Origin: Minisyncoccota bacterium
GTDB taxonomy: Bacteria > Patescibacteriota > Minisyncoccia > Phycocordibacterales > UBA9973
Assembly (NCBI GenBank): GCA_041667145.1
Contig: JBAYFP010000001.1
Coordinates: forward strand, 17,958-81,957
DNA: 64,000 bases
Reading direction: 5' to 3'
Under the pieces are notes generated by a model that did not search any database, was not told where the DNA came from, and saw nothing but the letters and a program-made list of their open reading frames with translations. Shown here piece after piece: positions 614 to 46,912 of the stretch (its first letter is position 1; every line of letters starts with the position of its first letter). The translations under genes were made by a program, and so were the position numbers.

Positions 614-1357
614 TTACAACATTTCTTTTTCCGGATAAGGCTTACCAGGTAGCCAAAGTGTTGGTTCTTTGGCATTTTTGAAAATAACCGCTTCTCCCTT
701 TCCCTTGAGGATGTATTCGTCATTTTCCACGACAATCCAACATCCCTCTGGCAAACCGATAACTGTTTGATTTTGGTTCCACATAAGAAATTGCTGGATT
801 CTCTCTCCACGTGTTTCCCCCATATGTTTTTCTACGAGGGCTCCAGAAACAAAATGTGGATTGATTTGGAAAGGAACTAAACCCAGAGCTTTGTCGCTTC
901 TTGGGAATATGGGGGCCATGTCATTTGTTGTCATCATGCTGGGACAAGCTACAACGGTACCAGCACTTGCGCTGATATATTTCCATTCGCAGGAACTGAC
1001 CTTTCCAAGAATTCGATGAATGAGCTCAAATTCATGAAGCCAGTACGCCAATGTCCATGTGTTGCCTCCGCCGATACAGATGGCTATGATCGAAGGATCA
1101 GAGAAACAGTCTCGAGCTGGATATGAAGTGATGTCTACGAGCTCATATCCTAGTTCGGCAAATGGTTCGGAAACCATTTTTGTATAATCTGTATAACCTG
1201 TATAACCTCCGTTTGCCTTTGCATATGGAATAAACACGATTTTATTTTTCCCTTGGATTGCGGGTCCCAAGAAATTCTTTAAGTCATCAAGACAATGACC
1301 CCAGAATTTACCATCTTGGTAGCGAGAACTACTGATTAGAAAAAGTTGTTTCATCAC
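614..1357 (-). CDS. pepE: dipeptidase E (peptidase S51, alpha-aspartyl dipeptidase)
   Basis: full-length resemblance to PepE, including GGGNT and TTNDMP-like motifs; AAGGAG SD 6 nt upstream of ATG. Confidence 0.75.
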   Translation of the reverse strand: MMKQLFLISSSRYQDGKFWGHCLDDLKNFLGPAIQGKNKIVFIPYAKANGGYTGYTDYTKMVSEPFAELGYELVDITSYPARDCFSDPSIIAICIGGGNTWTLAYWLHEFELIHRILGKVSSCEWKYISASAGTVVACPSMMTTNDMAPIFPRSDKALGLVPFQINPHFVSGALVEKHMGETRGERIQQFLMWNQNQTVIGLPEGCWIVVENDEYILKGKGEAVIFKNAKEPTLWLPGKPYPEKEML

Positions 1358-1519
1358 TATCTCCTTAATTGATTGTGAATTTTTTATTTATATTATTTGT
1401 AGCAACCAAATTTTTATAAAGAAACGTATTAGACAAAACGTAGAAAAACTTTTATCTCAAAGAATTGTATTTAATTACAAATTACCACATATTTAATTAT
1501 GAGTCAATTTTCCCACGAT

Positions 1520-1547
1520 GCTCCAGACTTGGGAGGATGTTCGAATG
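1520..1547 (+). repeat. 28-bp direct repeat copy B
   Basis: identical to copy A; followed by 8-codon ORF MEMIKMNN* and a hairpin. Confidence 0.8.
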
Positions 1548-1573
1548 GAAATGATAAAAATGAATAACTGAAA

Positions 1574-1604
1574 AAGCCTGTCCCCTCATAGAGAGGACAG
1601 GCTT
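1574..1604 (+). terminator. perfect 10-bp hairpin AAGCCTGTCC..GGACAGGCTT
   Basis: stem 1574-1583 with 1595-1604, 11-nt loop, followed by GTATTTG. Confidence 0.35.
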
Positions 1605-2046
1605 GTATTTGACAGTTCTATATCAACATATAATCGCCTTATTTAGAGATGTCAGCTCTGCATAGGCAATGGGAATCAGTCAAAATATATCTCGGAAGGA
1701 ATCTTAGAATGTGATTCCCTAGATCTTCCAGAACCATCCGAGACATAGCTCAGTTTAAAAAAATAGAATCTCCGACATTACTGAGCATCATTCGGGATAA
1801 TGAAGACTAATATGACTGCACTGGCGTATCTTAAAAGTTGTCTTCGAAACTCTTAAGATAAAAAACATAGGCCCTTACAGTTTAGATAATAAAGAACTAC
1901 AACAAATGTAGAAGGAGGCAAATATCACCTAACTCCTACATAATCAGGATAGCATATTCTGATTTAAAAGTCAAGCATTTTTAAAATACTTTTTTGAAAC
2001 ATAAATAATTCTTATAAAATAAGGCTACATTGAATTGCTCCAAACT

Positions 2047-2074
2047 TGGGAGGATGTTCGAATGGCTATACTTA
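2047..2074 (+). repeat. 28-bp direct repeat copy C (one substitution)
   Basis: GCTCCAAACTTGGGAGGATGTTCGAATG; followed by 10-codon ORF. Confidence 0.8.
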
Positions 2075-2206
2075 ACGAAAAAGAGCCCGTGTGATTATTT
2101 AATAATCCACAGAAATTATAAAAATATTTCTCTATAATAATAGTTAACTTAAAAGTTATTAACAACGAAAACTTGTTATTTTGCGTGATTTTGGTATATT
2201 GACAAT

Positions 2207-2806
2207 ATGGTCAAATTGGTCAATCGTACAGATTTTGTGTCTAAAATTAAGGCTAAAAAGATTAGTCTTTTTTCTGGACGTGAGATTCAAACATTATTTG
2301 GAGTTTCTAAGGTTGCTACCACTGGCATATTGCATCGTTATAGCAAGCAAGGTTTTATCATCCAAATTAAACGAGGTTTGTATGCGTTTCCTGATGCTTT
2401 ACCTCCTGAATTGTATCTTGCTAATAAACTCTATGATCCATCCTATATCTCAAGAGAGTTTGCTCTGTCATATCGTGGGATAATTCCTGAGATGGTATAT
2501 GAAATTACATCAGTGACAACTAAGGCTACACAAAAATTTAAAGCATTAGGTAAAATATATTCTTATCGTACGATTAAAAAATCTGCTTTTACTGGGTACA
2601 CAGTAGAGAAACAGCAAGGTTTTACTTTTCGCATAGCAGATGCAGAAAAAGCATTTGTTGATACTCTTTATTATCGCGTTATTTTTGGAAAAAAACCTAT
2701 AAGTCGTTTTAATAAAGAAAAAATAAATAAAAATAAAGCACTTAAATATGGTGAACTTTTTGATAATCCTAAACTTATTGGTATACTAAAGAGAACATTA
2801 TCATGA
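2207..2806 (+). CDS. AbiEi-family antitoxin / transcriptional regulator (type IV TA)
   Basis: N-terminal wHTH-like pattern ...LFGVSKVATTGILHRYSKQGFIIQIKRGLYAFPD typical of AbiEi; stop overlaps start of the next gene (ATGA). Confidence 0.55.
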   Translation: MVKLVNRTDFVSKIKAKKISLFSGREIQTLFGVSKVATTGILHRYSKQGFIIQIKRGLYAFPDALPPELYLANKLYDPSYISREFALSYRGIIPEMVYEITSVTTKATQKFKALGKIYSYRTIKKSAFTGYTVEKQQGFTFRIADAEKAFVDTLYYRVIFGKKPISRFNKEKINKNKALKYGELFDNPKLIGILKRTLS

Positions 2807-3567
2807 TTGGACCAGAACTATTAGAAAATATTGCACGACAGGAACAAACAAGCATATTCCCGAATATTGTTCGTGAATATGTGCAACATTTGTTTTTAAC
2901 CGAGTTATATCAACTTCCAGAATCGGAGAAATTGCTTTTTAAAGGTGGCACTGCTCTGCGTATAGTTTATAATTCGCCACGTTTTTCAGAAGATTTAGAC
3001 TTTTCTTTATTTGGAGTTCCTTCTAATGAAATTGGATCATTTGTTGATCGTTTATTTCTTGACGTTCTTGCAAAACTTGAAAGTACAGGTATTCACATAG
3101 AAATCGATAATAAATCTGCTCGGACATCTGGTGGATACTTTGGTCTAGCTACTCTCAATACAAATGGTTATCCTCCTATAAACATTGAAATCAATATATC
3201 ATCTAGAGGTGGAAATCATATTCAAGGAGAAATAGATAGTATCACAAATAATTTTGTACCAACGTATACGCTTTATCATTTACCACAAAAAGATATGGTT
3301 GATGAAAAAATATTTGGTGCATTGATTGATAGGAAAAAACCTCGTGATTATTATGATTTATATTTTTTGATGCGTAAGGGGATGTTGTCTCCAGAGCAAA
3401 AAAAACATCTTAGTGAAGTTGCAAAAGAAATCATTGATAGTTCTAAACAAGTTGATTTTCAAGGAGAACTTGGAATATTTTTACCTGCAAGCCAACAATC
3501 TATTATACGTGATTTTCCCCAAACATTAGAAAGAGAAATGCGTAATCAACTTTCCTTTAATCAATAA
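2803..3567 (+). CDS. AbiEii/AbiGii-family nucleotidyltransferase toxin (abortive infection)
   Basis: hallmark FKGGTALRIVYNSPRFSEDLDFS motif of the DUF1814/AbiEii NTase family; 4-bp overlap with upstream AbiEi. Confidence 0.75.
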   Translation: MIGPELLENIARQEQTSIFPNIVREYVQHLFLTELYQLPESEKLLFKGGTALRIVYNSPRFSEDLDFSLFGVPSNEIGSFVDRLFLDVLAKLESTGIHIEIDNKSARTSGGYFGLATLNTNGYPPINIEINISSRGGNHIQGEIDSITNNFVPTYTLYHLPQKDMVDEKIFGALIDRKKPRDYYDLYFLMRKGMLSPEQKKHLSEVAKEIIDSSKQVDFQGELGIFLPASQQSIIRDFPQTLEREMRNQLSFNQ

Positions 3568-7726: not shown

Positions 7727-8203
7727 AAATTATTTACTAGAACGCAAAAAGCTCCCAGCCAGCTTGATGGTTTTTAAGCCACCCGTATCCGTTTCCAGAT
7801 ACGACACAGTGAAGTGTAAACTCTGACTAGGAGTTCTTTATTCTTCACTGTGTTTTTAACCATACCTTATAGCTTTTTAAGCAATAAGGGTTAGGTCCTG
7901 TTTATTTAATTGTATTTATATTGTAACAAAAGAGAATTTGATAGTCTAATGTTTTTTTATTTGACTTTTAAAGCTTAGGAGTTAGAATAGAAATGTAGAG
8001 TTTTTAAAAAATAAAATATATGGCTTCTATTATTCAGAGAGTTTTTGTTTTTCCGCGAGACCAATAATTTTGGATACGCGAGATAGTCTTTAAAAGATTA
8101 AACCTGAAAATTGAATGCTAAATTATTACTAAAAAGATAACTCTTTTTAGGGTGTATTTAGTGTTTAATTTTTAGCTTAGGTCTAAAAATGAACAAATAA
8201 ATT

Positions 8204-10111: not shown

Positions 10112-10416
10112 GGATCGAACCTACGACCAATCGCTTACACTTTATCTTCTATTACTAGAAGTGTGGACTATATCATCTCCATGTTCATAACTTATGAATT
10201 TAGGAGCAAGGCGCTTCGCGCTCTAATAAATATTAGAGAGCTACTCCAAAATGGATAGTCTCTACACCTTCCTCAATTTTGTAATTGAGGCTTGGCTCGG
10301 GATTACCCTAAAAGGGCTTCCCCGAATTCACCTTGTTGTTCAACCTACCTTTTGATAGGAAGCTGCGTAATTTTTTATCGACACAGGCGACCGCTCTACC
10401 GCTGAGCTACCCCGGA
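10100..10416 (-). tRNA. tRNA (probably Asn-GUU) interrupted by a group I intron in the anticodon loop
   Basis: 5' exon TCCGGGGTAGCTCAGCGGTAGAGCGGTCGCCTGT (10383-10416) and 3' exon TAAGCGATTGGTCGTAGGTTCGATCCCTACCCCCGGAG (10100-10137) fold into a 72-nt cloverleaf with anticodon loop CUGUUAA; exact splice junction not resolvable by eye. Confidence 0.7.
10138..10382 (-). ncRNA. group I intron (IC3-like, Azoarcus/cyanobacterial tRNA intron type)
   Basis: contains AATCCCGAGCCAAGCC and GGAAGGTGTAGAGACTATCC, matching the conserved P7/P3 region (GAGCCAAGC, GAAGGUGUAGAGACUA) of Azoarcus tRNA-Ile and cyanobacterial tRNA-Leu introns. Confidence 0.7.
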
Positions 10417-10561
10417 ATGTATTTAATTAATGAAAGAACTTTAATTATCTTAACAGAAAATGAGTAAAAAACAATAGAGTAGATTTATTATTGAATTTAA
10501 AGTATAATATGAATTATATTATTAATAATCAAAATCATAACCGTTTAAGGCGGTAAATTAT

Positions 10562-14402: not shown

Positions 14403-14405
14403 ATA

Positions 14406-14460
14406 CCCAGACGTTGGACATCTGGGGATTATCCATAGTTCCAGATGTCCAACATCTGGG
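14406..14460 (+). other. pair of GC-rich hairpins (inverted copies of a 21-nt unit) between the Cys-rich paralogs
   Basis: CCCAGACGTTGGACATCTGGG (14406-14426) and CCAGATGTCCAACATCTGG (14441-14459), each self-complementary. Confidence 0.5.
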
Positions 14461-14471
14461 TGAAGAAAATC

Positions 14472-16238
14472 ATGGAGTATAAAAATGAAAATAAAATATG
14501 TCAAAACTGTAAACAAGATTTTACAATAGAGCCAGAAGATTTCAATTTTTATGAAAAAATAAAGGTACCTTCACCGACGTTTTGTCCACTTTGTAGGGCA
14601 CAGAGAAGATTTGCTTTTAGAAATGAAAAAAAATTTTTTCGTACAAAAAGCGCATTTTCTAATAAGGACATTTTTTCTTTATTACCCAAAGAAAGTCAAA
14701 GAAAAATTGTGACCGAAGAAGAGTGGCATGGAGATACATGGGACGCGATGGAATATGCTAGTGAAATAGATTTTTCAAAACCATTTTTGAAACAAATTTT
14801 AGATTTAGAAAAACTAATACCCATTTATAATCTAAATTGTCAATTTATGGTAAATAGTCAGTATTCAGGGAATGCGACAGCCCTTAGAAATTGTTATCTT
14901 TGTTTTAATTCTAACCATTCTGAAGATTCTATGTATGGGAATGCAATCGATAGCTCAAAGGATTGTGTAGATAATTCACATGTAAACCATTCTGAAAGAT
15001 GTTATGAATGTTTTTGGTTAGAAAATTGTTATCAATGTTATTTTTCGATAATATGTAAAGATTCTTTTAATCTATATTTTTGTAAGAATTGCGTAGGATC
15101 TTCAAATTGTTTTGGGTGTATGAATTTAAGTAAATCATCTTTCTGTATTTTTAATAAACAATATACAAAAGAAGAATATGAAATTGAAATAGAAAAAATG
15201 AAATTGAACACAATTTCAGGAATTTCAAAAGCTAGAGAAAAAGCACGTATATTCTGGTTAACTAAACCAGTAAAAAATCATCAGGGTTTGAAGAATTTGA
15301 ATTCAACAGGTTCTTATGTGACAAATTGTAAAAACGTAAATGATAGTTATTTAATTAGGGAGAGTGAAAATATGCGTTATTGTCAGTATATGCAGGTTTC
15401 AGGTAACAAGGATTGTTATGATACCTCTATTTGGGGAGAACACATGGAGTTGGATTATGAGACTTGTCTTTCTGGTGAAAATTCTTACAATTTAAAATTC
15501 TGCTTAAATTGTTGGCCAGCTTGTCGGAATAATGAATATTGTATTAATCTTTTTAGTACGACGGATTGTTTTGGTTGTGTTGGTTTGAAAAAGAAACAGT
15601 ATTGTATCTTAAATAAACAATATACAAAAGAAGAATACGAAATTTTGGTAGAAAAAATTAAGAACCATATGTATGAAATGCCATATGTTGATTCACAAGG
15701 TCTTGTTTATAAATATGGGGAGTTTTTCCCAATAGAATTTTCAGCATATGGATACAACAATTCGATTGCTTTTCAACATTTCCCGATTACGAAAGATGAG
15801 GCAGAAAAAAGGGGATATTTATGGATTGAAGTTCCTCATGGAGAATATACTATTACGAAAAAAGTTTCGGATCTCCCAGATTCGATTGATGATGTTGATG
15901 ATAATTTTTTAAGGGAAGTTGTAGAATGTGAAAATTGTAAAAATGCTTTTCGTGTCTTAGAGGATGAATTAAATTTTTTACAAAAAGAGAAACTTCCTTT
16001 ACCGACGATGTGTCATGATTGTAGACATAAAAGAAGGATAAGTGATAGATTGGAAATAAAATTATATGAAAGATCTTGTATGTGCAAGGGGGACTTTGAT
16101 GAAACTGGTGTTTATAAAAATACTGTAAAACATATACATAGTGATGAACCTTGCGGTGAAATATTTAAAACTGGATATAATCCTGATTCAAAAGAAATAG
16201 TATATTGTGAAAAATGTTATCAGCAGGAGGTATATTAA
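14472..16238 (+). CDS. cysteine-rich protein, paralog 2 (tandem duplicate of 12642-14402)
   Basis: roughly two-thirds identical to paralog 1 along full length; start moved to the Met aligned with paralog 1 (the ORF-track start 14445 overlaps the hairpin). Confidence 0.6.
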   Translation: MEYKNENKICQNCKQDFTIEPEDFNFYEKIKVPSPTFCPLCRAQRRFAFRNEKKFFRTKSAFSNKDIFSLLPKESQRKIVTEEEWHGDTWDAMEYASEIDFSKPFLKQILDLEKLIPIYNLNCQFMVNSQYSGNATALRNCYLCFNSNHSEDSMYGNAIDSSKDCVDNSHVNHSERCYECFWLENCYQCYFSIICKDSFNLYFCKNCVGSSNCFGCMNLSKSSFCIFNKQYTKEEYEIEIEKMKLNTISGISKAREKARIFWLTKPVKNHQGLKNLNSTGSYVTNCKNVNDSYLIRESENMRYCQYMQVSGNKDCYDTSIWGEHMELDYETCLSGENSYNLKFCLNCWPACRNNEYCINLFSTTDCFGCVGLKKKQYCILNKQYTKEEYEILVEKIKNHMYEMPYVDSQGLVYKYGEFFPIEFSAYGYNNSIAFQHFPITKDEAEKRGYLWIEVPHGEYTITKKVSDLPDSIDDVDDNFLREVVECENCKNAFRVLEDELNFLQKEKLPLPTMCHDCRHKRRISDRLEIKLYERSCMCKGDFDETGVYKNTVKHIHSDEPCGEIFKTGYNPDSKEIVYCEKCYQQEVY

Positions 16239-16275
16239 GAGGAGGCCGGACCTTTTTAGAAGGTCCGGCCTCCTC
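16239..16275 (+). terminator. 16-bp GC-rich perfect hairpin right after the paralog-2 stop
   Basis: GAGGAGGCCGGACCTT / AAGGTCCGGCCTCCTC; no T-run follows. Confidence 0.4.
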
Positions 16276-16290
16276 TAGTTATCCACAATT

Positions 16291-20013: not shown

Positions 20014-20412
20014 ATGAAAATAAATTTACAAGGTAAAAATTTAGAAATTACTCCGGCTATTAATGATTATGTGGTAAAAAGAATGACCAATCTAGGTCGG
20101 TTGCTTTCGGAGATTGAAGAAAAAGGTGGAGATATTTTAGTTCGTTTTAATGTTTCAAAAACAACAAATCATCACAGAGCAGGAGATGTTTTTGAGGCTG
20201 ATTGTTCTATAAGTATAAAAGGAGAGAACTTTTATTCTAAAGTTGTGATGGAAGATCTTTATCAAGCGATAGATATGGTGAAAGAAAATCTTTTTAATGA
20301 TATTGAGAAAAATAAAGATCGTAGGCAGACACTTTTTAGGAGAGGGGCGGCGAGTGTCAAAAAGATGATGAAAGGTCTTTCAAAGCGAAATCCTTTTACG
20401 TCGAAATATTAA
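20014..20412 (+). CDS. hpf: ribosome hibernation promoting factor / RaiA (S30AE family)
   Basis: typical S30AE fold sequence (LEITPAINDYVVKRM, VRFNVSK). Confidence 0.75.
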   Translation: MKINLQGKNLEITPAINDYVVKRMTNLGRLLSEIEEKGGDILVRFNVSKTTNHHRAGDVFEADCSISIKGENFYSKVVMEDLYQAIDMVKENLFNDIEKNKDRRQTLFRRGAASVKKMMKGLSKRNPFTSKY

Positions 20413-21317
20413 TTTTTATAATCTATCTCTTTTCCCCCTTCTGGAATAATCTTTTTTATTATAAACTGGTTATTTTCAAGTATCGCATCTGTAATTATTA
20501 TTCTTTTGCCATTCTTAAAAAAGAAAGTTCGGGGCCAAGTAGCATAAGCTCTGAATTTATTATAATTATTTACCCCATCATCATTTAAATTTATAAACCC
20601 GTCTTCTTTCTTAATTTTCTTGCAATAGGTGGCTTGAGATTCGTTTTGTTTTTCTCCCCCTGCGAAGGGGGAGTGTCCAGAGGACGAGGGGGTCTTTAAT
20701 ATTTTTACTAAAAGTTCTCCCCCAATTTTTATCATACGTTTACGTAATTCTCCTGCTTTTTCATCTGGCTTAATTTCTATTTTTTCTACAGCTATGATAG
20801 GTCCTGTATCCATCTTGTATTCCATCTTTTGGATAGTGACGCCCGTTTCTGTATCCCCATTTAATATAGCTGATTCTACAGGAGAGGCTCCACGATATTT
20901 GGGAAGTAGAGAATAATGAATGTTTATAGAAACTAGTTTAGGTAGATTTATTAAATCTTCTGGAATTATTTTTCCATAGGCGACTACCAGAAAGAAATCT
21001 GGTAAGGATTTGCTTTTAGCGGGTGTCTCGCAGGCTGACGAGCCGAGAGGCAGCGCTGTGCCAGTAGGCACAGACAGCGACCCGATAAAAGTAGAATCCT
21101 TACCAGATAGAATCTCGGGTTGCAGATAGGGGACATTGTTATTTATTGCCCAAACTTTTACGGGTGGGGGAGTTATGAGCATTTTACGTCCTTGTGGTTT
21201 ATCGGGAGCAGTGATTATAAGCGATGGCATATAGCCGTTTTCTTTTAGAATTTCTAATGTTTCGGAAGCGACATCTGGTGTTCCCCAGAATATGAAATTT
21301 AAATTTTTTGTATTCAC
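20409..21317 (-). CDS. fmt: methionyl-tRNA formyltransferase
   Basis: HYSLLPKYRGASP motif, N-terminal formyltransferase domain; carries two GC-rich palindromic inserts. Confidence 0.85.
   Translation of the reverse strand: MNTKNLNFIFWGTPDVASETLEILKENGYMPSLIITAPDKPQGRKMLITPPPVKVWAINNNVPYLQPEILSGKDSTFIGSLSVPTGTALPLGSSACETPAKSKSLPDFFLVVAYGKIIPEDLINLPKLVSINIHYSLLPKYRGASPVESAILNGDTETGVTIQKMEYKMDTGPIIAVEKIEIKPDEKAGELRKRMIKIGGELLVKILKTPSSSGHSPFAGGEKQNESQATYCKKIKKEDGFINLNDDGVNNYNKFRAYATWPRTFFFKNGKRIIITDAILENNQFIIKKIIPEGGKEIDYKN
20654..20673. repeat. GC-rich hairpin CTCCCCCTGCGAAGGGGGAG inside fmt
   Basis: 8-bp perfect stem in AT-rich coding context; encodes extra low-complexity residues. Confidence 0.45.
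21054..21079. repeat. GC-rich palindrome CGCTGTGCCAGTAGGCACAGACAGCG inside fmt
   Basis: 7-bp stem CTGTGCC/GGCACAG inside an insertion encoding GSLSVPTGTALPLGSS. Confidence 0.4.
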
Positions 21318-23861: not shown

Positions 23862-23991
23862 GTTGCTATTTTAGCACAAAAAAGTCTTGACACAATGGGG
23901 GAATATGTTTTGGAATAAATTATTCCCCTACACCAGGTGAAGGGGAATCACCACCCCCAACCCCCTCCTCCACAAGGAGGGGATGAAGTTA

Positions 23992-44829: not shown

Positions 44830-44880
44830 TTTTGGAATCAAAAGCTTTTCTGCTAATATGAATTTATGGATTTAAAACAC

Positions 44881-44916
44881 CCCGGTACTAGAGCAAAGCT
44901 TCAGTACGGGGCAGGC
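44881..44916 (+). promoter_or_regulatory. GTACT-family palindromic element (short-loop form) upstream of lepA
   Basis: CCCCGGTACTAGAGCAAAGCTTCAGTACGGGGCAGG. Confidence 0.55.
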
Positions 44917-44927
44917 ATTAGAAATTT

Positions 44928-46811
44928 ATGAAATTAGGAAATATTAGAAACTTCAGCATAATAGCTCATATTGATCATGGGAAGAGTACCTTGGCAGATC
45001 GAATGCTTGAGATTACTCATACTATTCCAGAACGTAAAATGCGCGACCAGGTGTTAGATACTATGGAGCTTGAACGTGAACGTGGAATTACTATCAAAAT
45101 GCAACCTGTGAGGATGGAATTTTCCCCGAATTCCCCGAAACCAGGTTTAGGGGGAATTCCCCTAAACCTGGTTTCGGGGAAAAATGAGACTTATGTTTTA
45201 AACCTTATAGACACTCCTGGACATATAGATTTCTCTTATGAGGTATCTCGCGCCCTAAAGGCTGTAGAGGGGTCTATTTTGTTGGTTGATGCAACACAGG
45301 GAGTACAGGCGCAAACACTTACTACGCTTAATATGGCGCGTGAGGGAGGCATCAAGATCATCCCTGTTCTGTCTAAAATAGATTCACCTTTGGCCCGTGT
45401 GGAAGAGGTAAAAAAGGAGGTTATAGAGCTTTTAAATTGTGATTCTAATGATGTTCTTATGGTCTCAGGACGTACAGGTGAAGGAGTGGAAAATTTGTTA
45501 CAAGAGATCATAAAACGTGTTCCACCACCAAAAGAAAATTACCAACAAGGTGAAAATATTTTACGTGCTCTTGTTTTTGATTTTAAATATTCAAGCCATA
45601 AAGGTGTGATAGTTTTTATTCGATTACTTGATGGGCAAGTAAAGAAAGGAGAGAGTTTAATTTTTTCAGTTTCAGGAGAGAAATTTAGTTCTCTTGAAGT
45701 TGGTACTTTTTCTCCTGAAGAAACTCCTAGGGATTTTTTGTCAGCAGGAGACACAGGATACATTGTCACAGGTATTAAAAGGCCAGGTATAGCTTCTGTT
45801 GGAGATACCATTACTAAAGAAAAAAATCCATTACCTCCGCTTCCTGGATACATGCAACCGATGCCTGTCGTTTGGGCTTCTGTTTTTCCTGAAGACGCGG
45901 ATGACTTTATGGAGTTAAAGGCCTCATTAGGTAAATTAAAACTTTCGGATTCTTCTTTTTCTTATGAGGAAGAATCTTCAGGTTCATTGGGGCGGGGTTT
46001 TCGTTGTGGATTTTTAGGAATGTTACATTTGGAAATAATTACAGAAAGATTAAGACGAGAATTTAATTTAAAATTAGTAATCACAACACCTTCTATTACT
46101 TACGAAGTTGTTATGAAAAATCCTTCTATAGTTTCAGGGCATTTTGGTAAAAAAGTAAAAATATATTCTCCATATTTTTTCCCAGATGATGGAAATATAG
46201 AAACAGTTCAAGAGCCTTGGGTTGATGTAAAAATAATTTCTCCAGCAAAATTTTTAGGTAATATTATGCAACTTCTTTTCGACCATGAAGCGGAAGTAAG
46301 AGAAACAGATAATTTTGGTAATAATCGTTCTTCTTTATCTGTCAGAATGCCACTTCGTGAACTTATGCGTAATTTTTTTGATGAATTAAAAAGTGTAACA
46401 TCTGGCTATGGATCTATTTCTTATAAAATAGGGGAAATGAGAGAAGCGAATGTCACTCGACTCGATATTCTTGTAGCGGATGAAGTCGTTCCAGCTTTTT
46501 CGAGAGTTATAGCAAAAAAGAGAGCGGAAGAAGAAGCAGAAAAAGCTGTTGAAAGGCTAGAAGGTATTTTACCAAGACAGATGTTTACTTTAAAAATACA
46601 GGGTAGAGCTTTAGGGCGTATTATTTCTTCACGTACAATGTCTGGCATGAAAAAAGATGTCACCCAGCACATGTATGGTGGAGATATCACTCGTAAAATG
46701 AAGCTTCGTGAGAAACAGAAAAAAGGGAAGAAGAAAATGAAAGAGCGAGGCAGGGTAAATATCCCACAGGATGTATTCTTAAAAATGATGCGTTCGGGGA
46801 ATGATAATTAG
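44928..46811 (+). CDS. lepA: elongation factor 4 (LepA)
   Basis: GTPase motifs AHIDHGKST, DTPGH; LepA C-terminal domain; carries in-frame palindromic insert. Confidence 0.9.
   Translation: MKLGNIRNFSIIAHIDHGKSTLADRMLEITHTIPERKMRDQVLDTMELERERGITIKMQPVRMEFSPNSPKPGLGGIPLNLVSGKNETYVLNLIDTPGHIDFSYEVSRALKAVEGSILLVDATQGVQAQTLTTLNMAREGGIKIIPVLSKIDSPLARVEEVKKEVIELLNCDSNDVLMVSGRTGEGVENLLQEIIKRVPPPKENYQQGENILRALVFDFKYSSHKGVIVFIRLLDGQVKKGESLIFSVSGEKFSSLEVGTFSPEETPRDFLSAGDTGYIVTGIKRPGIASVGDTITKEKNPLPPLPGYMQPMPVVWASVFPEDADDFMELKASLGKLKLSDSSFSYEEESSGSLGRGFRCGFLGMLHLEIITERLRREFNLKLVITTPSITYEVVMKNPSIVSGHFGKKVKIYSPYFFPDDGNIETVQEPWVDVKIISPAKFLGNIMQLLFDHEAEVRETDNFGNNRSSLSVRMPLRELMRNFFDELKSVTSGYGSISYKIGEMREANVTRLDILVADEVVPAFSRVIAKKRAEEEAEKAVERLEGILPRQMFTLKIQGRALGRIISSRTMSGMKKDVTQHMYGGDITRKMKLREKQKKGKKKMKERGRVNIPQDVFLKMMRSGNDN
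45124..45179. repeat. 46-bp near-perfect palindrome inserted in frame in lepA (family C)
   Basis: CCCCGAAACCAGGTTTAGGGG-gaatt-CCCCTAAACCTGGTTTCGGGG (45133-45179), with a partial extra half-copy 45124-45132; adds about 14 aa before DTPGH. Confidence 0.75.
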
Positions 46812-46819
46812 ATTAAGAC

Positions 46820-46912
46820 AGGCCACTCTTGAAAGAATTTTCGAAACTGCGCCCTCGGAGTCATAAGGACAGGGAACCCACACGTTTCTTAAAATTCTTT
46901 CAAGAGTGGCCT
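46820..46912 (+). terminator. long hairpin (22-bp perfect stem, about 49-nt GC-rich loop) just after the lepA stop
   Basis: AGGCCACTCTTGAAAGAATTTT / AAAATTCTTTCAAGAGTGGCCT, followed by TTTTCAGTTATTT. Confidence 0.5.

Follow-up and report, generated by a model that had tools for sequence, protein, structure and literature searches.

The lepA gene, which encodes translation elongation factor 4 (EF4), carries an in-frame palindrome of 51 nt in a 64,000-nucleotide stretch of a Minisyncoccota bacterium contig, hereafter the window. We propose that this palindrome is probably a REPIN-like element, that is, a doublet of repetitive extragenic palindromic (REP) units forming a hairpin, which was mobilised by a REP-associated tyrosine transposase (RAYT) and has been tolerated as an in-frame loop insertion in Paceibacteria. 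The proposal draws on the anatomy of the element, its dispersed in-frame copies, their association and co-variation with a transposase, the turnover of the LepA loop in which it lies, and flanks free of target-site duplications.

Reading of the sequence together with a repeat search defines an inverted repeat whose two 23-nt arms are 100% complementary across a 5-nt spacer (Table). A preliminary description of this DNA had reported a palindrome with 21-bp arms that could not have arisen by chance; its 21-nt core is indeed exact on both sides, and shuffles of the window yielded zero matches to the 21-nt unit. The left unit pairs with itself over 4 + 5 bp, with a single G/A mismatch at positions 5 and 17, and is thus a short imperfect palindrome within the 20-40 bp range of REP units. 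As in a REPIN, two inverted units with a short spacer between them make up one long hairpin. Window 45110-45200 has computed folding energies of -30.1 kcal/mol (z = -7.5) for DNA and -51.7 kcal/mol (z = -7.7) for RNA. The left unit corresponds to the single-unit family CCCCTAAACCSGGTTTAGGGG, which flanks a RAYT-like gene on three related contigs (L009, L013 and L016). The 9-bp sequence TTCCCCGAA is present twice in tandem, at 45122-45130 and then at 45131-45139, and one-sided partial duplications of an element end recur at L050 (TTTCCCCGAAAC twice), at position 5495 of L009 and at L051 (TTTAGGGGA(A) twice), which agrees with the earlier suggestion that the partial duplication is a footprint of insertion. 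A diverged upstream duplication (SPKV / STKV) also precedes the homologous inserts of L076 and L156. Searching the palindrome region against Rfam 15 returned only sub-threshold matches to eukaryotic miRNA hairpin models, and a search of a phage collection gave no match.

The host gene is intact. Window LepA shows 100% identity with P0001 (named 'translation elongation factor 4 [Candidatus Paceibacterota bacterium]'), contains all five LepA Pfam domains and matches solved EF4 structures at E = 1e-60. Aligned with these structures, the insert falls between ...GITIK-MQPVRME and YVLNLIDTPGH, at an alignment gap between conserved blocks, and the predicted protein reads ...MEFSPNSPKPGLGGIPLNLVSGKNETY... 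across it. The extra residues thus lie where the preliminary description had placed them, between the GITIK and DTPGH blocks, although they number 17 (51 nt) and not about 14. We read the flanking blocks as two beta strands with the insert probably at their turn, and we take the upstream RGITIK block to be the switch I region of the G domain. An AlphaFold2 (AF2) model of the protein is poor, with a mean predicted local distance difference test score (pLDDT) of 54; it renders the insert as coil between two strands and is uninformative beyond the sequence alignment. A second extra segment of LepA, the 8 residues PSIVSGHF (~46113-46136), is not palindromic in DNA.

Comparison with the 120 closest LepA proteins (78-88% identity) indicates how unstable this loop is. 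About half of them have 20 residues between RGITIK and DTPGH, the length that remains when the 17 residues SPKPGLGGIPLNLVSGK are removed from window LepA; in the others this segment measures 21-52 residues, in two proteins 180-192, and the longer segments comprise many mutually unrelated sequences. A homologous insert is found in three close relatives only, P0002 (L156), P0059 (L157) and the LepA of L076, and in no distant lineage, the one occurrence that the preliminary description had named as refuting its reading. These three cluster at a loop-masked distance of ~0.05, together with LepAs bearing different loop inserts (PLLVEEGVGGG..., FPISNFQFPIND...KLKIEN and HSDRQLINAERNTDK...). The nearest relatives of window LepA (P0003 and P0007-P0010; loop-masked distance ~0.09) have no palindrome in the loop, which, with the common length left after removal, upholds the earlier reading as an in-frame insertion. 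Near-identical LepAs (about 95% identity once the loop is excluded) with unrelated inserts or none therefore imply that loop content changes much faster than the protein, and the lepA loop is a recurrent landing site for many different palindromes. Small inserts vary elsewhere in LepA as well, near residues 199, 393 and 440, and some of these are perfect palindromes in DNA (L076, L157 and L115).

Several of these LepA genes hold further palindromes of note. In a Zambryskibacteria metagenome-assembled genome (L115, 3555-3600, ~residue 188 of LepA) a perfect 46-bp in-frame palindrome, CCCCAAGGAAGGACCTAGGGG AATT CCCCTAGGTCCTTCCTTGGGG, has the unit design of the window (mismatch at positions 5 and 17) with the centre GGGGAATTCCCC. 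Doublet-bearing LepAs contain extra in-frame palindromes of other families (L076 3624-3646 and 4247-4274; L157 4151-4178), which read LLPLTKGEV and YPHTKNSVRV and bring the count to three palindromic inserts in one essential gene. On L164, the contig encoding LepA P0036, a Y1_Tnp gene lies directly upstream of lepA (316-1041 and 1095-3455) and is flanked by TGCGTTAGGC...GCCTAACGCA palindromes; the LepA itself has, in the same loop, an in-frame insert of ~170 residues with a PDDEXK_3 domain, bounded by inverted GCAGACTAACGC unit arrays whose core CTAACGCAG is common to the transposase's palindrome. In the window, a palindrome at 23962-23982, CCCCTCCTCCACAAGGAGGGG (PLLHKEG in one frame), just upstream of an open reading frame (ORF) starting at 23983, resembles the 'PLLxxEG' family of LepA loop inserts in relatives.

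The lepA element is one member of a family with dispersed copies. Public metagenome contigs scanned for CCCCNAAACCNGGTTTNGGGG yielded 75 loci: those of high GC are ordinary terminator-like hairpins, and those of low GC (29-36%) contain two related forms, a single unit and a doublet. The doublet architecture recurs in other genes (L012/L018, L017, L043 and L050, and in degenerate form L031), with the same two 21-nt units, which in these unrelated genes differ only at the unit central base and in the spacer. Spacers across copies and orthologues read AAATT, AAACT, AAGTT, AGA, TTT or GAA, and the arms remain complementary. Housekeeping genes identified with Pfam carry the doublet or the single unit in frame (Table). 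The single unit has stops in two of the three frames of each strand, and its open frame gives SPKPGLGE whichever the orientation; the doublet leaves two of three frames open, SPKPGLG..PLNLVSG or FPETRFRG.SPKPGFGE. The flanks of eight doublets showed no direct repeat, target-site duplication or shared target motif; HUH/Y1 transposition of the IS200/IS605 kind is expected to leave no target-site duplication. GC-rich perfect palindromes number 36 in 713 kb of Paceibacteria DNA, of which 16 fall within long ORFs; a block-shuffled control had 1. Related contigs have up to 4 unit copies within 0.9-1.5 kb. The preliminary description had proposed looking for further copies in the genome; such copies are present in metagenome contigs, and the 64-kb window itself has one element, the 21-nt unit and its reverse complement being the sole matches at no more than 3 mismatches. 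Peptide queries added nothing: one built from the doublet's two frames gave no candidate host proteins, and an exhaustive search of representatives with a 30-aa window peptide returned only the spurious repeat protein P0241.

The window's own fmt gene (minus strand, ORF 20409-21317) contains, at 20998-21107, an imperfect in-frame palindrome of ~110 nt with outer arms TCTGGTAAGGATT and AATCCTTACCAGA (DNA fold -33.3 kcal/mol, z = -7.4), which adds ~20 residues at the site where the L043 Fmt orthologue has its REPIN doublet. A small GC-rich palindrome in the same gene (20654-20673, minus strand), CTCCCCCTGCGAAGGGGGAG, is read HSPFAGGE, and the segment that holds it exceeds that of the L043 orthologue by 4 residues.

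Single units cluster around a gene for a RAYT-like Y1/HUH transposase. The contigs with at least 3 copies (L009 and L013) all encode an ORF of ~235 aa with an MPNHFH motif, which L016 shares, and a homologue of this ORF occurs in 6 of ~22 distinct low-GC loci retrieved by palindrome pattern alone. Scored after removal of 8 REP-encoded residues, the associated protein (P0121) reaches 24.4 bits against Pfam Y1_Tnp (PF01797; cutoff 23) and E = 1.7e-9 against the NCBIfam model for REP-associated tyrosine transposases (NF047646). It contains the HUH motif and the catalytic Tyr motif that define Y1/HUH enzymes; MPNHFH and SYIHLNP are invariant in 69 homologues. The profile of these homologues matches a single PDB entry, weakly, E. 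coli TnpA-REP (4ER8), with the HUH and YI.NP motifs aligned, and a Foldseek search with an AF2 model likewise gave 4ER8 as its best and only significant match (E = 8.9e-4, probability 1.00), followed by the IS200, IS608 and ISDra2 transposases. The 4ER8 structure is of a RAYT bound to a REP hairpin. Homologues of the RAYT-like protein exceed 7,800, the named ones coming from Paceibacterota, Nomurabacteria or Patescibacteria and a few being annotated RayT. Gene order around the transposase is kept on four contigs (PG_binding genes, RAYT, Ig-like protein, rplJ, rplL), as expected for a vertically inherited single-copy RAYT and not for an insertion sequence.

The palindromes and the transposase co-vary. 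Nearly all of 120 homologues have an 8-residue segment, SPxPGxGE, directly after the HUH strand, and its variants are translations of different palindromes. At the DNA level, each of the seven transposase loci compared (L009, L060, L158-L161 and L162) has one variant of its own that follows the HUH motif within the ORF and recurs at or over the stop codon (7/7), and in 6/7 the same variant lies ~15-160 nt upstream of the start; the upstream palindrome of L060 is of a different type. The window's lepA doublet is built from the L009 variant, and the lepA doublets of L157, L076 and L156 are built from the L162 variant. The lepA copies therefore track transposase-specific REP variants. The variant of these three relatives (AAGC-TGG/CCA-GCTT) agrees with the REP of transposase P0135, and P0135 and L157 derive from one aquifer sample series.

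Table. Features of the lepA element in the window, forms and in-frame hosts of the palindrome family, and REP variants of transposase loci.
Feature	Position or locus	Strand	Sequence or remark
lepA (EF4), intact ORF, 627 aa	44928-46811	+	From the ORF list
REPIN-like doublet, 23 + 5 + 23 nt	45131-45181		17 codons, read SPKPGLGGIPLNLVSGK
Left arm	45131-45153		TTCCCCGAAACCAGGTTTAGGGG
Spacer, loop of the long hairpin	45154-45158		GAATT
Right arm	45159-45181		CCCCTAAACCTGGTTTCGGGGAA
Left REP unit, imperfect palindrome	45133-45153	+	CCCCGAAACCAGGTTTAGGGG
Right REP unit	45159-45179	+	CCCCTAAACCTGGTTTCGGGG, exact reverse complement of left unit
9-bp exact tandem copy of the element's left end	45122-45130	+	TTCCCCGAA, encodes SPN; read from the sequence
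Single-unit form			TTCCCCTAAACCSGGTTTAGGGGAA
Doublet form			CCCCGAAACCNGGTTTAGGGG-5 nt-CCCCTAAACCNGGTTTCGGGG; architecture exactly as in the lepA element, at unrelated sites
Unit pattern			CCCC[GT]AAACCNGGTTT[AC]GGGG
Doublet host, MurE-like	L012		In frame (Pfam)
Doublet host, MurD, two orthologues, same site	L017, L050		In frame (Pfam)
Doublet host, Fmt	L043		In frame (Pfam)
Doublet host (degenerate), UvrB	L031		In frame (Pfam)
Single-unit host, GatA	L053		In frame (Pfam)
Single-unit host, RsmI	L075		In frame (Pfam)
Single-unit host, RsmE	L059		In frame (Pfam)
Single-unit host, HolB	L061		In frame (Pfam)
Single-unit host, Jag/R3H	L003		In frame (Pfam)
REP variant	L009		CCCCTAAACCSGGTTTAGGGG
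REP variant	L060		CCCCTAAGTCGGACTTAGGGG
REP variant	L158		CCCGGACACCWGGTGTCCGGG
REP variant	L159		CCCCTGACCCWGGGTCAGGGG
REP variant	L160		CCCCTATCCCSGGGATAGGGG
REP variant	L161		CCCCTTCACCWGGTGAAGGGG
REP variant	L162		CCCCTAAGCTGGGCTTAGGGG

How the arms have stayed perfect bears on the nature of the element. The four homologous lepA inserts (window, L076, L156 and L157) are each 51 nt long and free of mismatches, although their sequences differ. Each arm shows 4 differences between the window and L076, and every change is mirrored in the opposite arm; between L157 and L076 the inner 3-nt loop of each unit is flipped (CCA to TGG); the arms of L076 and L156 are the same, and spacers vary among the lepA inserts. 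Divergence at third codon positions is ~22% among L076, L156 and L157 and 39-44% between these and the window, and the ~93 base pairs of the four palindromes include zero G-T pairs. Arms free of mismatches and of G-T pairs despite such divergence argue for a process acting on DNA, not for selection on RNA structure. Palindromy could be kept by re-insertion or replacement from the REPs currently present in the genome, or by hairpin-templated correction.

We propose the following mechanism. Short GC-rich palindromes scattered in low-GC Paceibacteria (Patescibacteria) genomes form a family associated with a single-copy, vertically inherited RAYT-like Y1/HUH transposase. This enzyme would recognise the hairpin on single-stranded DNA and mobilise the element in trans, and the hairpin would be copied or moved without a target-site duplication. 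Survival within coding DNA would call for a tolerant surface loop, a length that is a multiple of three and a frame free of stops, and the lengths fit such a rule (51 nt for the lepA doublet, 24 nt for single units). Its position in a loop and its open frame would then explain why the lepA element is tolerated, and the element would be translated as a flexible loop of the LepA G domain.

A number of points weigh against this proposal. We know of no direct demonstration of RAYT-driven REPIN transposition, in this system or elsewhere. P0121 scores 37.7 bits against NF047646, under the curated cutoff of 80, and the RAYT fold match rests on a mediocre AF2 model (pLDDT 67) with template modelling (TM) scores of 0.30-0.39. 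No RAYT homologue is found in the 64-kb window; given this and the single copy of the unit, the link to a transposase in the source genome is therefore an analogy drawn from related contigs. The consensus TTCCCC[T/G]AAACCSGGTTT[A/C]GGGGAA and its variants have neither the GTAG nor the CGTC tag. The 17-residue Ser/Pro/Gly/Lys-rich loop extension is presumably translated, as judged from the open frame. Reuse of the exact same lepA codon position by different elements is unexplained by tolerance alone, and a site-specific process may be needed to account for it.

A bolder version of the proposal, which we regard as unlikely, would make the REP-RAYT pair an active, lineage-specific system that continually rewrites certain loops of essential proteins, the transposase's own post-HUH loop included. 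The transposase, or hairpin-templated repair that it triggers, could replace or homogenise intragenic copies so that they follow the current REP specificity, and the copy within the transposase ORF could be a built-in autoregulatory or specificity-tracking site. Rather improbable, in our judgement, is that the lepA element is now kept for a function of its own, either as a hairpin, in mRNA or DNA, that sets the pace at which lepA is translated or replicated, or as a ribosome-related loop of LepA. Such a function would suit the perfect pairing of the arms in four diverged orthologues whose spacer and flanking loop codons change freely, a very stable RNA hairpin (insert folded together with short flanks, -46 to -54 kcal/mol) and a site in the G domain downstream of RGITIK. 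Close relatives with unrelated inserts or none, however, imply that LepA requires no particular sequence or structure here, and the different frame in which other hosts read the same DNA (FPETRFRG.SPKPGFGE) rules out a common peptide function; the lack of G-U pairs favours DNA-level copying over RNA-level selection, and AF2 gives the insert as coil only, with low confidence.

The hairpin could instead have arisen in place, if template switching or an inverted duplication occurred during replication and quasipalindrome correction followed; its likeness to other palindromes would then be convergent. Hairpin-templated correction would account for the perfect arms, the 9-bp tandem duplication at the left end is a slippage-type event, and two other inserts show what such an origin might produce: the palindrome of L134 (~3178-3204), CGAATGGCTTGG-ACG-CCAAGCCATTCG, takes in conserved upstream codons, and that of L164 (1278-1295), CGGATGATATATCATCCG, is likewise an inverted copy of conserved upstream codons. 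Judged by sequence, both look like products of local template switching rather than imported elements. For the lepA element, however, an origin in place is largely refuted by doublets that combine the same two 21-nt units in genes and contigs unrelated to one another, and single units in many genes and around a co-varying transposase gene tell against it too; convergence on one 21-nt sequence is not credible when window shuffles give no chance match. We accordingly consider it very improbable. More remote still is an artefact of assembly or sequencing, for instance a fold-back chimera: fold-back artefacts in some library types do yield perfect palindromes, but the insert keeps the frame with a length of exactly 51 nt, homologous inserts of the same length stand at the same codon in independent assemblies made from other samples by other pipelines (L076, NCBI; L156, Logan; L157, ENA), and the same protein is on record at NCBI, JGI and ENA, which leaves this explanation next to no weight. 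Other candidates were set aside. Programmed frameshifting or translational bypass is not needed, given an open frame and a length that is a multiple of three, and reading of the sequence revealed no canonical slippery heptamer immediately upstream of the stem; an intein or intron would be far larger and would have splicing motifs, which the element lacks.

The REPIN-RAYT systems of Pseudomonas fluorescens and E. coli, in which REP doublets forming hairpins accompany REP-associated tyrosine transposases (PMC3116915), are the closest counterpart. Shared with them are the short imperfect palindromic unit, the two inverted units that form one long hairpin across a short spacer, copies dispersed over metagenome contigs, at related loci a Y1/HUH gene that is single-copy, vertically inherited and bordered by its own REPs, co-variation of REP and transposase lineage, and the lack of target-site duplications. 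In contrast, Paceibacteria copies are often intragenic, in frame and in essential genes; their units have no GTAG tag and give the same peptide from both orientations; the transposase ORF contains a third cognate copy, placed straight after the HUH motif; the host genome is a reduced one of the candidate phyla radiation (CPR)/Patescibacteria; and the transposase is too diverged for the NCBIfam RAYT cutoff. A GTAG (or CGTC) tetranucleotide at one unit end is typical of described REPs (PMC3733652). The lepA element, being in frame within a gene, is not extragenic in the sense of the REP definition, but intragenic REPs are documented: Di Nocera et al. (2013) found REP monomers and dimers wholly within ORFs of known proteins, excision-repair proteins included, with intragenic dimers encoding ~20-30 residues, which the authors read as tolerated insertions (PMC3733652). 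The family described here differs from theirs in sequence, in having no GTAG/CGTC end and in phylum, and goes beyond it in that one protein loop is reoccupied by different palindromes in near-identical orthologues and orthologous copies remain mismatch-free.

Like the Paceibacteria palindromes, Rickettsia palindromic elements (RPE) are in frame in many unrelated housekeeping genes of a reduced genome, as selfish palindromes whose insertions are apparently compatible with protein fold and function (PMC10969869). RPE, however, are ~100-150 bp long with no known cognate transposase, whereas the present elements measure 51 nt (24 nt as monomer) and have a RAYT-like partner; the lepA element is unrelated in sequence to the RPE consensus, and its host is a member of Paceibacterota, not Rickettsia. 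Palindrome-associated elements derived from IS200/IS605 and the miniature inverted-repeat transposable elements known as MITEs are likewise small, non-autonomous and hairpin-forming, and presumably mobilised in trans by a Y1 enzyme through single-stranded DNA. Unlike them, the lepA element has no distinct left and right ends, no IS-derived terminal inverted repeats and no target-site duplication, the 9-bp repeat being a one-sided tandem copy of the element's end; the transposase gene sits in conserved synteny and is not multi-copy. The element is best filed as one of the REP/REPIN-RAYT kind with RPE-like in-frame behaviour, and not as a new category. Our literature search, whose coverage was incomplete, found nothing specific on in-frame palindromes or REPs in Patescibacteria or CPR.

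REPs and REPINs are usually described as extragenic; here an element of REPIN type resides, in frame, within essential genes of a minimal genome, and its family sequence is built to remain open and loop-like when translated. To our knowledge, the actual role of RAYTs is still unsettled. The unexpected features reported here, namely a REP internal to the transposase, co-varying triplets and loop turnover, make RAYT specificity and activity testable; they offer a natural data set for the REP-RAYT recognition code (at least 7 co-varying triplets, and many more by extension) and for how protein loops in CPR gain insertions. They also carry a warning: where CPR proteins vary in length or contain odd Ser/Pro/Gly-rich segments, this may reflect mobile DNA and not adaptive domains. 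Should continual rewriting of loops prove true, a RAYT would be a site-directed in-frame editor of coding DNA with a cellular role.

Other structured sequences lie near lepA and elsewhere in the window. The murJ-lepA spacer contains an imperfect GC-rich hairpin at 44880-44915 (CCCCGGTACT...AGTACGGGG), which may be a terminator or another decayed palindromic element. Beginning 9 nt past the lepA stop, a 93-nt hairpin with a perfect 22-bp stem (46820-46912; RNA fold -45.8 kcal/mol, z = -7.3) belongs to no Rfam family and has no copy in any fetched locus. Two inverted repeats, at 14405-14461 (21-nt arms, 95% complementarity) and at 16238-16276 (perfect 17-nt arms, AGAGGAGGCCGGACCTT), are apparently outside real coding sequence. 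Rfam models also identify, on the minus strand and above their gathering scores, a LOOT RNA at 7766-7897 (77 bits) and a group I intron at 10145-10456 (67 bits).

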